Positions 3,579 through 63,120 of a DNA stretch of 64,000 nucleotides are shown here, in pieces. Numbering within the stretch: the first letter of the stretch is position 1; each line of letters starts with the position of its first letter. Source of the DNA: Octopus vulgaris (lineage: Eukaryota); assembly GCA_951406725.2 (NCBI GenBank), contig OX597815.1, forward strand, positions 44,516,001 to 44,580,000, written 5' to 3'. The notes below the pieces were generated by a model, which was not told the DNA's origin, did no database searches, and worked only from the letters and a program-made list of their open reading frames with translations. The translations under genes were made by a program, and so were the position numbers.

Positions 3579-3978
3579 AATAATCAAAATAAGCAACAAG
3601 TATGACTCCGGTAATTTGGTACGATCGTTTCGTACTACATCATTTTATTAAATGTTGTAAGTACTACAACAGTTTTAAAATGCTGAGTACTCATCAGCCA
3701 ATTATAGAGGTTTTCCATTAATACAAACAATTTTCATATCAAGTGGCAACATAATAGAGTAGGTAGATATATAGACAAAGATGTAGGTTTAAATTTTAAG
3801 AACATTTCAGGTAGTAAAGCTCATCAACTGACTGGCTAAGATTCGGTTGCTCCAGACTACTGTAAGATTCTGAGAAGGAAGAATATGTAGAAAGAGACAA
3901 TAAAGAATTTTCTAATTGTAGAAATGGGGTAAGGGGATTTCAGAGCTCCATATATGGAATTTAAGTAGAAGACAGCAT
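3579..3978 (-). mobile_element. Short non-coding HHR-bearing element (Penelope pLTR-like) embedded in TA-rich microsatellite
   Basis: Unique ~400 bp flanked on both sides by TA-rich tracts; homologous to 42835-43135 (+) and 56199-56621; contains an HHR. Confidence 0.7.
3616..3701 (-). ncRNA. Type I hammerhead ribozyme, canonical core
   Basis: Minus strand: ttgg-CTGATGA-gtac...(extended stem II catttta/taaaatg, tgttgta/tacaaca)...gtac-GAAAC-gatc-GTA^ccaa. Stems I and II pair; stem III is the palindrome ACGATCGT. Confidence 0.88.
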
Positions 3979-4599
3979 ATATATAAATATGTATGTATGT
4001 ATATATGTATATATGTATATATATATATATATATATATATATATATATATATATATATATATATATATATATTGGGGTCTGGCTTTATTTCGGGCGCGCG
4101 TCTGGGCGTGTGCTTGTGGGCCTGTAGTTTCGCATGCGCCCGCACCACGATAGTCTTTCCATCTGTCCTTCAGCTGCGAAGTGTGTCCTTGCATGCATGT
4201 ATATGCACGCATGTGGGCATGTGTATGTGTGTGTGTGTGTGTGTGTATATGCAAACATATAAACACACATTTGTACACACACGCACATACATGCATTCAC
4301 TCCCACGCACGTACACAGACACATTTACATATATATACAATACACGCACACATACACACGTACAAACACCCACTAATTCACATACACACAGCCTCATATA
4401 CATACGCACACTCGCACACAATCATACATACGTATATATACACACACACACGCACGGAGAAGCACACACGCACACATACACTAAGTCTAAGCACAGTTAC
4501 TCGCCATACACACAAAAAAACGCACACGTACACACACACATACTACAACAAAGCACACACACACGATACATATACACGCACACACACATACCTCCCTGT

Positions 4600-5065
4600 T
4601 TCTGACCTGCCTTTTCTGACTTGCTAGGGTACCCCCACCCACTCCTTAATTCCCTACTGCCTGCTACCAGCCATCGTCCACCATTCCACTAATGCTTGCT
4701 AGTAGCCCACGTCCACCAGACACACACATACACACACACGCACACACTCACACACACACCCTTGTCATCTCGCACACCTTTTTTACCATTCATTCTTTGA
4801 TTCAGCTCTTTTGTTTTTAAAAAACACTTTTCCTTCCTTTTGACCACTTCCGTCCTTTTAGTATGTGACCTCGTGTAGACTACCTGCTATTTTTTCCCCT
4901 CTGTCCTCCCGTCTCGGGATGTTTCTTTCTCCTATGTTTCCGACGAAGAGCTCCGCTCGAAACGTCAAACCCTCCTTCTTCCCTTCTTTCCTGAGCGTCC
5001 AATAATACTTTATTTGTTCCACATCCTTGCGTTGTTGTTTTTTTGTTTTCATGTTTGGATTAACT
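4600..5065 (+). mobile_element. Penelope-like element 3' end/pLTR (non-coding), ending at (TA)n
   Basis: Pyrimidine/CA-rich stretch resembling 30850-31490 (downstream of the GIY-YIG fragment), then a minimal HHR, then (TA)n. 5' boundary approximate. Confidence 0.55.
4936..4970 (+). ncRNA. Minimal hammerhead ribozyme (variant core CCGACGA)
   Basis: gttt-CCGACGAA-gagc-tcc-gctc-GAAACGTC^aaac. Stem I gttt/aaac, stem II gagc/gctc, palindromic ACGT stem III as in PLE minimal HHRs. Confidence 0.75.
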
Positions 5066-5139
5066 ATATATATATATATATATATATATATATATATATA
5101 TATATATATAGAGAGAGAGAGAGAGAGAGAGAGAGAGAG

Positions 5140-5323
5140 TTTACGAAAAAAAACAAAAGACGAAGACAGGTGGTGTACAAAACAAACAGATGTATTAGTA
5201 TAACGCTCAGGAATAGAAAAAGTCTTTTACGTTTCGAGCCTACGCTCTTCTACAGAAAGGGACACAGAAAAAACAAGGAGAGAAAAATGTGTGTAGTGGC
5301 TGACGATCTATCATGGCAACTAG
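5140..5323 (-). mobile_element. Penelope-like pLTR fragment between (GA)n and (TA)n
   Basis: Its minus-strand start (gccatgatagatcgtcagccactacac...ttctctccttgttt) matches 31422-31472, the 3' region of the GIY-YIG element; carries a minimal HHR. Confidence 0.7.
5224..5259 (-). ncRNA. Minimal hammerhead ribozyme (variant core CTGTAGA)
   Basis: Minus: cttt-CTGTAGAA-gagc-gtag-gctc-GAAACGTA^aaag; same topology as 4936-4970. Confidence 0.7.
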
Positions 5324-5395
5324 TATATGTATATATATATATATATATATATATATATATATATATATATATATATATATATATATATATATATA

Positions 5396-59670: not shown

Positions 59671-60068
59671 CGCAGGAGTGGCTGTGTGGTAAGTAGCTTG
59701 CTAACCAACCACATGGTTCCGGGTTCAGTCCCACTGCGTGGCATCTTGGGCAAGTGTCTTCTGATATAGCCCCGGGCCGACCAATTCCTTGTGAGTGGAT
59801 TTGGTAGACGGAAACTGAAAGAAGCCTGTCTTATATAGATATATATGTATGTATGTGTGTTTGTGTGTCTGTGTTTGTCCCCCTAGCATTGCTTGACAAC
59901 CGATGCTGGTGTGTTTATGTCCCCGTCACTTAGCGGTTCGGCAAAAGAGACCGATAGAATAAGTACTGGCTTACAAAGAATAAGTCCCGGGGTCGATTTG
60001 CTCGACTAAAGGTGGTGCTCCAGCATGGCCGCAGTCAAATGACTGAAACAAGTAAAAGAGTAAAGAGT
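59671..60068 (+). mobile_element. SINE family B (tRNA head, CORE-like cttgggcaagtg domain, internal microsatellite, gtaaaaga tail)
   Basis: A box tggctgtgtggtaag, B box gggttcagtccc; about 14 copies or fragments in the window. Confidence 0.92.
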
Positions 60069-62132
60069 ATACTGCAAATCTAGATGAAATGAAATTAAAC
60101 GAAATAACGACTACGGGAGTGAAATCTGCACATTTCACCGTTTTTGCCGCTTGCCAGTGCCACGCATTCTGCTCCCCTCCGTCGAAAAGTTGCTTCGATC
60201 AGTCTGAAGTATGTAGAAGAAGTGAATAAACAATCTACATTCCTAAATAAAATCCAAACATGTAACAGGAGCTACTCTAGATTAAAATATTTATCTATAA
60301 GACATACTTAACTTATGTATATTGTTGAAAATTTGAAACTGCAGTATTACTCACGAAAGAAATCCCTTTATCGACGAAGTGTATTAAAAATACAACGTAT
60401 TTGATAAGCGTCAAATATACTGACGCATGTCACTCGCGCAGTCACTTCCGAAACGATTTCGTTTCGTCTAGTCCTGAAGTATATTTGTTTTTAACACACT
60501 TCGTGAATAAAATGTTAAGGTGTTTTTTTTTTCCGAGACTTTTCACTGATATACATAGGCTGAGTATGTCATATAGATACTGATTTTAATCGGAATCTGT
60601 TTCAATTACATAACTTGAATATTTCATTATATTTAAACAGCCCATGTTTTGTATATTTTTCGTTGTTTTCACAGCTACGTCTATCTTTAGATATAGTGCT
60701 TATGTGACTATGATGGTGCACATACCCCACCAGTGACTGGCATTAGTTAAAATATGTAGTTTTCTAGTTGTGCTTTAAATAGAAACAACCAAAGGAAGAA
60801 TTCTAAAGAGAAATAAGAACCATATACATCATATATAATGTATTTGTGAGTTATTAGTTTTCAAGTCTTGCTTTAAATGTAGGCAAATCGAGAAAGAGTT
60901 AATACTGTGTAGTTTAGTGAAGGGAAAGTGGATGACACTTGAGATAACGCTGTCACTAATTTTCTGATTTAAAATCATTATCTGTCCAAGCTCAACTTCT
61001 TTTCAATAGCTCTCTCCCACTACCACCAACAGCTATTCTTCTCCAACACTTTTTTTTTATCTCCTTCTCCAATTTTATCACTGCATTCTAAAGATGAATG
61101 TTGTTGTTTTTTTTATTTTTCATTTATTTATTTATTGCTGAATATTTTTTAAAAGCCAATCCTAGTTTTGTATACTTATACTTAAATATGAATGTTTGTG
61201 TGTGTTTCACTGAAATGTTTTATAGGTCTAGCATACCAAACACCACGACAAAATGTAAGCAAATACACTACCTATCTTGTGTACAACGCTATGTATACGT
61301 ATATACAACCATATAGTCACATACATATATATATGCGCACGCACATCTCTCTCTATATACTCATATGTTTGTATATGTGTAGGTGTATATATGTATGCAA
61401 GGCTATAGGTGTGAGATGCTGTTGCATGGAGGTAGCGTATCCAAAGGCTGGTGTGAATGTATATGTATATACATATGTATATATACACGTACATATGTAT
61501 TTGTATATACATATGCATGTGTGTGTAAGTATATGTAAGCATATATCATATGAACAATGTGGAGAACAGAAAACGTTAAATGAACGTTGCAGCAAGAATC
61601 GCACCGCGAGTTCCGCTCACAATTGTTAAGTGAAGATCATTGTTACCCACTGTATCGTAAATGAAGTCATAATGAAGGAGGCTTTGCTGGTAATGTGCGA
61701 GTTGGGAACATGGATATCAAGATGGATAATCGATACATAGCTTCCTACAATGCTTGGTTACTTAAAAATACGAAGCACACATCAATAACGAATGGGGACC
61801 ATCTATCGAGGCCGTCATAGATCTTTATAAATACATATTCAAACATGCAGACCATTGTATCATCTCACCAGAAAGAAAACAAGAAGGGATTCATCTTAAT
61901 ATCAATGAAGCAAATCAGCAACTTGAGTTCATAAACTATCATGTCTAGAATAGGTACGGGGGCGGAAATTGGGAAGCGGTGGGGTTTAGATCCATCGACC
62001 TCGTTGCTCAACTGATTTTTACTTTTTCAACCCCGAAAAAAAAAATAAAAGGCAAAGTCGACCTCGGCAGAATTTTAGATCAGGACGTAAAAGGGGAGAA
62101 AATGTGGCTAAGCATTAACTTAGCAGAAATAT

Positions 62133-62404
62133 GGTGGCGAGCTGGCAGAAACATTAGGACGCCGGATGAAATGCTTAACAGTATTTCGTCTGCCGTTACG
62201 TTCCGGGTTCAAATTCCGCCGAGGTCGGCTTTGCCTTTCATTCTTTCGGGGTAGATTAAATAAGTACCAGTTACGCACTGGGGTCGATATAATCGACTTA
62301 ATCCGTTTGTCTGTCCTTGTTTGTCCTCTCTGTGTTTAACCCCTTGTGGGTAGTAAAGAAATAGGTATTTCCTCTGCGTTACATTCTGAGTTCAAATTCC
62401 GCCG
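62133..62404 (+). mobile_element. SINE family A composite (second unit truncated by a Helitron 5' end at ~62408)
   Basis: Same gtaaagaaataggtatttc junction as 33932-33950. Confidence 0.88.
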
Positions 62405-62723
62405 TATATCTCTCTATATAAACGGCAGTTTGTCTGTGCGTGTTTCTGTGTGTCTATTTGCTTGTACCCTCACCCTGACCACGGCTTTCAACCGATTCTG
62501 ATGAAACTATAATATCATAATTCATAACGCAGCGAAAATATATATATAAATTCGACATATCATGTCTATCCATATGTATAACTCTCTAAAAATGCTTTAT
62601 AGTTATATATATATATGTATACATAAATATATATATATATATGTATATATATATGTATATGTATATATATATATATATATATATATATATATATATATAT
62701 ATATATATATATATATATATATA

Positions 62724-63120
62724 CTGTTGTGTCTGGGGAGAGTCATTCTCTTTTGGTGCCTTATAATTTAACAAACTCACCGGTAAAATTTCCACTGATT
62801 TCTCTTTTATTTTTCTAAAATTTTCGTTACGTCTTGCAACCTTTTTAATAGTATGCAAGGTATGTAGTGTATTTGCTTACATTTTGTCCTGGTGTTTGGT
62901 ATACAAAACTAGGATTGGCTTTTAATAGTCAAAACTATTGAAAAGGTTGCAAGACGCAACGAAAATTTTAGAAAAATAAAAAAGAAATGTGGAAATTTTA
63001 CCGGTGAGTCTGTTAAATTATAAGGCACCAAAAGAGAATGACTCTCTCCAGACACAACAGAATATGCTTCAACACACGAACTCACATAAAGAATCTTGCA
63101 AGCCAAATCCAGAAACGAAA
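62724..63120. mobile_element. Fold-back element in (TA)n with ~130-bp inverted arms
   Basis: 62724-62852 versus 62934-63060; right arm extends 60 bp to a TA tract. Confidence 0.88.
62935..62971 (+). ncRNA. Candidate minimal hammerhead with U3-A8 core
   Basis: cta-TTGAAAAG-gttgc-aagac-gcaac-GAAAATTT^tag; same spacing as the minimal HHRs at 4936 and 5224. Confidence 0.55.

Follow-up and report, generated by a model that had tools for sequence, protein, structure and literature searches.

Hammerhead ribozyme motifs in the Octopus vulgaris genome as probable marks of the 3' ends of Penelope-like elements

Ten hammerhead ribozyme motifs lie within a 64,000-nucleotide stretch of the Octopus vulgaris genome (contig OX597815.1, positions 44,516,001 to 44,580,000; hereafter the window), in short units that the original prediction took, as a class, for non-autonomous ribozyme elements mobilised by Penelope-like elements (PLEs) and landing at TA microsatellites. 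We consider it very probable that the motifs lie near the 3' ends of PLEs, five of the seven window families being truncated coding elements and the other two gene-free, circularly permuted mini-elements likely served in trans. The link to PLEs, the TA landing sites and the large, diverse population have held up; class-wide non-autonomy has not, since only two families (D and E) fit it. The host genome comprises 2.8 Gb in 227 contigs, and the window is rich in microsatellites.

In full-length copies of these PLEs, a single gene encoding a reverse transcriptase (RT) with, at its C terminus, a GIY-YIG endonuclease (EN) is followed by a 3' untranslated region (UTR) that contains the hammerhead. 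Families A, B1, B2, C and F cannot be called non-autonomous because their longer copies continue upstream into such genes; their units are 5'-truncated ends or pseudo-long terminal repeats (pLTRs) of protein-coding elements. For A, represented in the window by the motifs at 3616, 42943 and 56496, 30 loci share a sharp common 3' end, and their 5' ends vary from 0 to more than 1,200 bp upstream along one endonuclease coding sequence. The coding region lies upstream in loci L007, L011, L014 and L030, with both RT and EN in L192 and L193. Family C is full-length in L086 and L087, where two direct pLTRs about 5.6 kb apart surround RT and EN; its copies elsewhere are 96-100% alike, and the full-length ones are 97-100% alike to the window copy. 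Upstream of B1 a long CA-rich UTR precedes RT and a Neptune-type EN (L196, L200). B2 has an EN upstream in L038, L366 and L367, of the same family as a window fragment at 30.5 kb, and F has a Neptune/Nematis-type EN in L178 and L186 and an RT in L195. Most genomic copies of B2 and F are shorter than 300 bp.

The encoded proteins allow a provisional assignment to clades. The C protein combines DKT, a CxCX5C linker, CxxC and CxH around E and N without CCHH, which is the motif set of the Hydra clade by published criteria (PMC8557442), with RWR at the RWK position. In the A protein the linker and EN motifs of the same clade were found, and the DKT region was not recovered. A CX2-5CxxC linker and a CCHH GIY-YIG domain of Neptune/Nematis type follow the RT in B1 (L196, L200) and F (L194, L195); B2 copies showed an EN, with no intact linker or RT in those examined. 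A C protein piece is 99% identical to an Octopus sinensis record, and its other matches are octopod. In the three assembly copies of the C gene that were read, RT and EN occupy two frames, with the break at the same place (L086:4992-5047). Contigs from four sequencing runs, three possibly of RNA and one of undefined kind, cover the C gene, which attests its presence and bears on neither ends, strand nor cleavage; those of three of the four carry one more base at the break and are not split into two frames. We considered an intron or a programmed frameshift and rejected both, as no spliced joint was seen and contigs from three of the four runs carry the extra base. A defective C sublineage may be spreading by complementation. 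No RNA record was listed for the C pLTR. Separately, octopod records label Hydra-type PLE proteins (P0001, P0005, P0115) 'GATA zinc finger domain-containing protein 14-like' or treat them as uncharacterised host genes, and many relatives of 690-750 amino acids occur on assembled contigs of 2.2-3.4 kb.

The two Penelope-like GIY-YIG fragments noticed earlier in the window are indeed present, at 30557-30808 on the plus strand and 25940-26213 on the minus strand, and the sequence that one of them was said to share with a hammerhead unit was recovered: the 3' region of the 30557-30808 fragment is that of the unit at 5224. The ten motifs amount to nine insertions, as those at 27417 and 28538 belong to one inverted insertion (27206-29041) with arms 98-99% alike, and they fall into seven families rather than the six first counted. 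Insertions are stacked in each other's TA ends: B1, B2 and the tip of a further family, G, at 4.0-5.5 kb, A and D at 43.15 kb, and E and A2 (a subfamily of A) at 56.19 kb. B1 and B2 stand tail-to-tail with a microsatellite tract common to both.

The motifs themselves are confirmed as hammerhead-shaped folds, and self-cleavage as a dimer is predicted. All ten, comprising nine and a weaker one at 62935, were found on the strands and at the positions originally given, and the weaker one is a real minimal hammerhead with U3-A8 covariation. A strict descriptor matched the window seven times in its loose form and five times with a palindromic helix III, against means of 0.8 and 0.08 in 60 block-wise dinucleotide shuffles. 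A relaxed descriptor, permitting C4, U or C at position 6, U3-A8 and a 3-bp helix I, gave seven matches (3697-, 4940+, 5255-, 42946+, 56019-, 56501+, 62938+) against a mean of 0.13 and a maximum of 1 in 30 shuffles, which bears out the expectation that the motif density exceeds that of shuffled sequence. The D motif at 43195 passed the strict descriptor and failed the relaxed one because of a one-letter break in the palindrome of this copy; the letter is intact in 20 of 25 family copies. Neither descriptor accepted the C pair (27417-/28538+), because helix I has only two contiguous pairs, even though core, helix II, GAAA and 8-nt palindrome are all there. Helix III is a perfect palindrome in nine of the ten motifs, D being the exception. 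The cores of A, C and D are canonical, those of E and F have U3-A8, and B1 (C4) and B2 (U6) are each one core position off. Inverted halves near 56320 and 62840 contain two more motifs in partial form.

The predicted stem covariation was also borne out. The first 30 long-helix loci, chosen only by core and helix III, provided seven unrelated families, with one copy taken from each. Swapping partners lowers the number of Watson-Crick pairs in helix I from 19 of 21 (all 21 pair once G-U is allowed) to 7.8 (P=0.0009), and in helix II from 27 of 35 to 12.1 (P=0.00065). As these parts played no role in the choice of loci, the pairing represents genuine covariation. Conservation of columns within families (similarity-ranked copies of A, B1, B2, C, E and F) is uninformative because the copies are too alike. 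Minimum-energy folds fit the hammerhead helices at some sites (z -2.8 to -4.5, 6/10) and not at others, and are not taken as proof. An Rfam search, proposed as a check of the original prediction, did not recover the motifs: the window had no match at the gathering score and no hammerhead among the 150 that were listed of 222 matches at E<=10, a list filled by microsatellite matches to microRNA models.

A large and diverse hammerhead population extends genome-wide, as had been proposed. Exact patterns compared with reversed-pattern controls matched the whole genome 4,410 times against 1 for the long-helix type, 34,661 against 0 for the B type and 402 against 0 for the E type. The sum over the three patterns, 39,473 exact matches, is a firm lower bound. 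In forty 10-kb stretches spread evenly (400 kb) there were 27 matches, seven of them in one array and two probably due to chance, against 0-1 in each of 10 shuffles; the neighbouring 200 kb contained five against 0-1. From these samples 4.3 matches are expected per 64 kb, or 3.4 when pooled, and the seven of the window correspond to Poisson P values of 0.15 or 0.06 (hand calculation). The density of the window is near the genome norm. Extrapolation from 21 events per 400 kb, with the array counted once, gives approximately 0.9-2.2 x 10^5 motifs. Published counts include 2,000-9,000 per genome (PMC4209133), about 5,000 in a mussel and up to 120,000 in axolotl (PMC7229834). At least seven unrelated families (L202-L231) have the same 8-nt palindromic helix III with helix II domains of 44-70 nt, and could in principle form mixed dimers; others, absent from the window and some of them with U3-A8, appear in evenly spread and neighbouring stretches (L234, L239, L244, L251, L252, L259, L260, L268, L276, L284).

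The most abundant of these motifs depart from the canonical core. U6 (CUGUNGA) is present in 18,988 of the 34,661 B-type matches, and a hand tally of the first 100 listed gave 60 with U6, 22 with C4, one with both, three with C6 and 14 canonical. A tree built from 64 copies groups the 46 U6 rows in a single clade (100/100; bootstrap not fully settled), arranged as a ladder of subfamilies with end branches from long to very short and with flanks 72-78% alike between subfamilies. A motif-blind set was assembled by recovering copies from 1.41 Mb of other loci through the downstream flank alone (32 rows, with at least one duplicate). U6 occurs in 29 of the 31 copies that cover the position, and the commonest letter is kept at 94% in the core, 95% in helix I and 85% in the flank. 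The varying positions are N7 (44%; 14 A, 8 U, 5 C, 4 G) and H17 (78%), precisely those that are free in hammerheads, and this points to selection maintaining a hammerhead fold with U6.

Whether such a fold would still cut is a separate matter. Position-6 changes are described as rare and harmful, A6C cleaving at <0.1 per min (PMC3088659), and in one construct A6C was >10,000-fold slower in Mg2+ than in Mn2+ (PMC7151607); by analogy U6, the commonest form, is predicted to weaken cutting. It is possible, if on balance doubtful, that many of the hammerhead folds, above all those with U6 or C4, no longer cut and are kept as a structural signal for RNA dimers or protein recognition. Such a role would suit the prevalence of U6 among B-type matches, the strongly lowered Mg2+ cleavage of A6C, the poor cutting of PLE hammerheads in vitro (PMC4209133), the eight of nine Xenopus retrozyme dimers that were left uncut (bioRxiv 2026.07.22.740005) and the sequence past the cutting site that all copies retain. 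It sits less easily with the 94% retention of the other catalytic positions in flank-found copies, where only N7 and H17 vary, and with the reports that U4C is still viable in a viroid and that U3-A8 is an active covariation (PMC3088659). A search of the literature found no natural A6U, CUGUNGA or CUGUAGA hammerhead; the PLE-variant survey of Luense et al. 2017 lay beyond that search and may include octopus or U6. On octopus hammerheads or cephalopod retrozymes only PMC8557442 proved relevant. An octopus repeat annotation of 2026 names 31 Penelope-like families as recently active, and neither 'ribozyme' nor 'hammerhead' occurs in its main text (PMC13282606).

Association with microsatellites was said to extend to every unit, in the form of (TA)n or (ATT)n. 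For TA this stands in A, B1, B2 and C and is weak in F; (ATT)n is mostly internal to the elements, lying within C and D and growing from the element's own end in E. The motif (TA)4 falls within 20 nt of the 3' end in 27 of 29 A copies, 21 of 24 B1 copies and 26 of 29 B2 copies, the null from random positions being 5.6%. Among 24 printed C ends, three run on into the element and all 21 terminal ones end in TA; the two sites used are separated by about 160 nt, and each coincides with the element's own TA. Loci selected by motif only have TA within 300 nt downstream in 22/30 (long-helix) and 24/30 (E) cases, with a null of 22.6%, and upstream in 11/30 and 10/30; at U6 loci TA lies 80-150 nt after the site in 20/30. 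This asymmetry between the two sides (22 vs 11; 24 vs 10, of 30) would also be expected had TA tracts been made or lengthened by the insertion itself, through slippage at the primer end, rather than serving as pre-existing landing sites. Many of the two-sided TA cases in C are inverted pairs in which both ends are 3' ends, and the (AAT)n of E grows from the element's own end, both of which agree with such an origin. We nevertheless judge it unlikely, given that (TA)n preference is reported for Hydra PLEs (PMC8557442) and that PLE-type elements occupy the linker of a SINE-like (short interspersed element) repeat at 6/238 loci, a linker that carries (TA)3 in 46 of 53 intact copies. Only one of these loci, L159, is free of other inserts. 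Pre-existing and insertion-made TA can both hold.

Among the seven window families, only D and E are retrozyme-like units lacking an open reading frame (ORF) and circularly permuted. The period of E is 362 bp, and its longest ATG frame is 30 amino acids. In 30 motif-selected loci (28 distinct places) its 5' side is its own 3' end, as a head-to-tail junction, in 22, and an inverted 5' piece is present in 20. Two same-strand hammerhead-bearing units occur in three of the 30, and L324 contains a trimer. D has a period of about 450 bp, a longest ATG frame of 47 amino acids and internal (AAT)n and (TA)n tracts; its own 3' end lies upstream of the unit in L093, L095, L100 and L116, and only partial tandems were seen. 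A third retrozyme-like family came from an evenly spaced stretch outside the window (L232:2097-4768; G000:C1, near 20.002-20.005 Mb). It is a young array of 359-bp units, five forward and two inverted, that are 97-100% alike; the unit carries a canonical type I hammerhead, and TA stands at both ends of the array. An older relative of this unit is present in L284. The predicted circle folds have z=-6.8 for E and z=-4.4 for the L232 unit, against 60 shuffles. A coding master was not found for E in 25 similarity-ranked loci, the 30 motif-selected loci and three spaced pairs, nor for D in 25 loci and two extensions. D and E likely use the enzymes of PLEs in trans.

A single mechanism may unite both kinds of element. 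Gene order, ends, truncation, inversion and circular permutation were observed directly. Following the published clades, a GIY-YIG endonuclease guided by its cysteine-rich linker would nick (TA)n, and (TA)n nicking guided by the linker, inverted 5'-truncated copies and tails are reported for Hydra and Neptune PLEs (PMC8557442). Judging from the junctions, the freed TA end would pair with UA in the RNA, approximately 35-390 nt downstream of the hammerhead, and prime reverse transcription, each family offering one to three such sites. As the products show, copying usually ends early and often folds back, to give the short hammerhead-bearing units and inverted pairs that are observed, and later elements insert into the TA tracts left by earlier ones, as in the stacked insertions. 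Paired as a dimer by means of its palindromic helix III, the hammerhead is predicted to cut the transcript, whose ends would then rejoin to a circle, as modelled in PMC4209133. Such a circle would account for 3' ends past the cutting site and for copies that exceed one unit. The D, E and L232 units would be gene-free versions of this circle, of 360-450 nt, presumably mobilised in trans.

Several results weigh against this account. The commonest motifs carry U6 or C4, a type of change reported to lower activity (PMC3088659), and the scarcity of two-unit E loci implies that dimers in cis are rare. BLAST found no match between D, E or L232 and 12 PLE-bearing loci that might reveal an autonomous partner. 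The clade names Hydra and Neptune/Nematis rest on protein motifs and not on an RT tree, and a Pfam search with five proteins returned nothing above the cut-off, the GIY-YIG match of the B1 endonuclease falling below it. The 3' UTR of G contains no recognisable hammerhead. F ends at (TA)n in just 4 of 24 copies, and 69 of 122 copies of a common SINE without a hammerhead have TA inside them or no more than 100 nt away, which tempers the specificity of TA. Nevertheless, the view that all the units are retrozymes, non-autonomous and mobilised by PLEs, fares considerably worse. Every window unit is short and non-coding, most B2 and F copies are under 300 bp, and D and E fit; set against this, the 5' ends of A are spread along one coding sequence, as are those of B1, B2 and F, and full-length C is nearly identical to its window copy. 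This view is already largely refuted for five families and is very improbable. That D, E and L232 are satellite-like tandem repeats propagated by DNA recombination and not through RNA, as the near-identical tandem units of L232 might suggest, is highly improbable in view of copies on many contigs with 0.6-2 units, fixed TA 3' ends, variable 5' ends and inverted 5' pieces, the marks of coding PLEs.

The insertions are compiled in Table 1. G is an old Hydra-type family (25570-26309 and 5390-5502; L328-L342) with 1,924 first-look candidates, approximately 80% alike. Window positions 27206-28862 form an inverted repeat without spacer whose 820-bp arms are 98-99% alike, and similar PLE fold-backs are common (A2, F, E, C). 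If transcribed, they would yield long double-stranded RNA, with a possible bearing on cephalopod RNA editing. An abundant SINE-like repeat lies at 21141-21565, 42373-42796, 44863-45182 and 59674-60071, its internal CA/TA linker being a landing site of PLE ends. Coding fragments at 24453-24905, 40388-41095 and 35459-36108 are, judged from their translations, presumably Tc1/mariner-like and LINE-like (long interspersed element).

Table 1. Hammerhead-bearing and related insertions, in window positions.
Positions	Strand	Element	Hammerhead	Other features
3580..3929	-	A, 5'-truncated 3' end of Hydra-type PLE	3616-3701; core CUGAUGA, 59-nt helix II domain, palindrome ACGAUCGU, GUA site	Other copies have the coding region upstream; short 3' end adjoins (TA)n 3564-3577
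4072..5064	+	B1, 3' UTR of Neptune-type PLE	Minimal, 4936-4970; U4C core CCGACGA, extra A after position 9, palindrome ACGU	Flanked by two (TA)n tracts
5132..5321	-	B2, 3' end of Neptune-type PLE	Minimal, 5224-5259; A6U core CUGUAGA	
5390..5502	-	G, 3' tip of Hydra-type family	None recognised	Ends in (TA)n
25570..26309	-	G, decayed Hydra-type GIY-YIG endonuclease fragment and 3' UTR	None by eye or window scans	
27206..28024	-	C, inverted 5'-truncated arm	27417-27524	3' end in (TA)n 27032-27208
28026..29041	+	C, direct arm, pLTR of young full-length Hydra-type PLE	28538-28645; core CUGAAGA, ~85-nt helix II domain, palindrome ACAGCUGU, weak helix I	Long 3' end, ~160 nt into pre-ORF sequence of full-length copies, then (TA)n
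30395..31487	+	B2-family PLE fragment, GIY-YIG endonuclease 30557-30808 and 3' UTR		UTR stops just short of hammerhead; probably begins near 29930
42833..43148	+	A, long 3' end	42943-43026; U.U at helix II base	(TA)n both sides
43153..43590	+	D, ORF-less circularly permuted unit of ~450 bp, old (~80% alike)	43195-43247; canonical core	Expanded internal (TAA)n 43510-43569, part of unit
55771..56185	-	E, 1.1 copies of ORF-less 362-bp circularly permuted unit	55983-56025; U3-A8 covariation, palindrome ACAUGU	
56198..56374	-	A (subfamily A2), inverted 5'-truncated arm	3' half only	TA end carries E insertion
56385..56624	+	A (subfamily A2), direct arm	56495-56588	Short 3' end in (TA)n 56621-56642
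62719..62851	-	F, inverted arm	Decayed motif copy	Ends in (TA)n 62662-62723
62927..63124	+	F, 3' end of Neptune/Nematis-type PLE	Minimal, 62935-62971; U3-A8 core UUGAAAA, palindrome AAUU, 3-bp helix I	

Taken together, our findings present this genome as a natural test series in which canonical, U3-A8, C4 and U6 cores, young full-length elements and gene-free circles occur together, at a time when the role of the hammerhead in PLEs is 'still a mystery' (2020 review, PMC7761336). Should U6 cut, ribozyme searches that use the core consensus overlook the motif most common in this genome, as happened here with Rfam; should it not cut and yet be conserved, selection keeps something other than cleavage. 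Whether retrozymes are mobilised by PLE enzymes can be put to a tractable test with the mini-elements. It also matters for annotation that PLE pieces make up some annotated genes and a sizeable class of octopus repeats labelled 'unknown' or SINE-like. It is tempting to speculate further that, among some 100,000 PLE hammerheads, the top lineage has exchanged the 'invariant' A6 for U and kept it through its subfamilies with the other constraints in place, either as an undescribed catalytic variant (with, for example, another metal or protein requirement) or as proof that PLEs select the fold for a non-cutting role, and that TA-targeted retrozymes with the full insertion marks of PLEs provide direct genomic evidence of PLE enzymes moving retrozymes. 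This larger claim is a tentative one, quite conceivable and a little short of what we would endorse.

Earlier publications already describe hammerheads in PLEs, their targeting of TA, a Hydra family from octopus and retrozymes derived from PLEs. The scale and the conserved U6 lineage were not found in print, with the proviso that the survey of Luense et al. 2017 may cover U6. The comparisons that follow draw on excerpts of the papers named. Solitary minimal hammerheads have been suggested to be truncated PLEs (Cervera & de la Pena 2014, PMC4209133), and the motifs described there resemble ours in their type I topology, short helix I, extra base after position 9, G10.1-C11.1, palindromic or absent helix III, U3-A8 variant, predominance of solitary copies from truncated PLEs and opposite-strand pairs 100-700 bp apart. 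They differ in number, 2,000-9,000 there against 39,473 exact matches here; the U6 and C4 cores and 55-85-nt helix II domains found here go unmentioned in those excerpts. Natural A6C and U4C variants (Perreault et al. 2011, PMC3088659; PMC7151607) likewise have position 6 or 4 substituted in an otherwise complete core, but they are rare single phage or viroid cases, whereas here most members of the genome's most abundant family have U6.

The coding families also have close published counterparts. Hydra-1_Obim from O. bimaculoides combines (TA)n preference with a hammerhead (Craig et al. 2021, PMC8557442 supplement), and our Hydra-type elements share with that clade the C-terminal GIY-YIG, DKT, CxCX5C linker, lack of CCHH, hammerhead near the 3' end and (TA)n insertion. 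C is distinguished by its length of about 5.6 kb, against a single ORF generally <3 kb (a tendency and not diagnostic), by its asparagine-rich linker, long UTR and RWR for RWK, and by a hammerhead unlike that of Hydra-1_Obim, which has a short loop 2; at least seven long-helix families occur here. B1 and F follow the Neptune/Nematis plan of an RT, then a CX2-5CxxC linker and a CCHH GIY-YIG, with a microsatellite bias (PMC8557442). They and B2 depart from it in the fixed U6 (B2) and C4 (B1) and in the weak TA link of F, the clade being assigned by motif and not by tree.

Vertebrate retrozymes have been derived from PLE pLTRs (Li, Clavereau & Pollet 2026, bioRxiv 10.64898/2026.07.22.740005). Our gene-free units recall animal non-LTR retrozymes (PMC7229834; bioRxiv 10.64898/2026.07.22.740005) in being ORF-less, 360-450 bp long and arranged head-to-tail, with a type I hammerhead, a predicted stable circle and co-occurrence with PLEs. 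In contrast to those retrozymes (PMC7229834), D and E are mostly dispersed copies of 0.6-2 units that show TA junctions, two fixed 3' ends and 5' inversions of the PLE type; neither was found to resemble a PLE pLTR, and D, at 450 bp, exceeds the range of approximately 220-390 bp.

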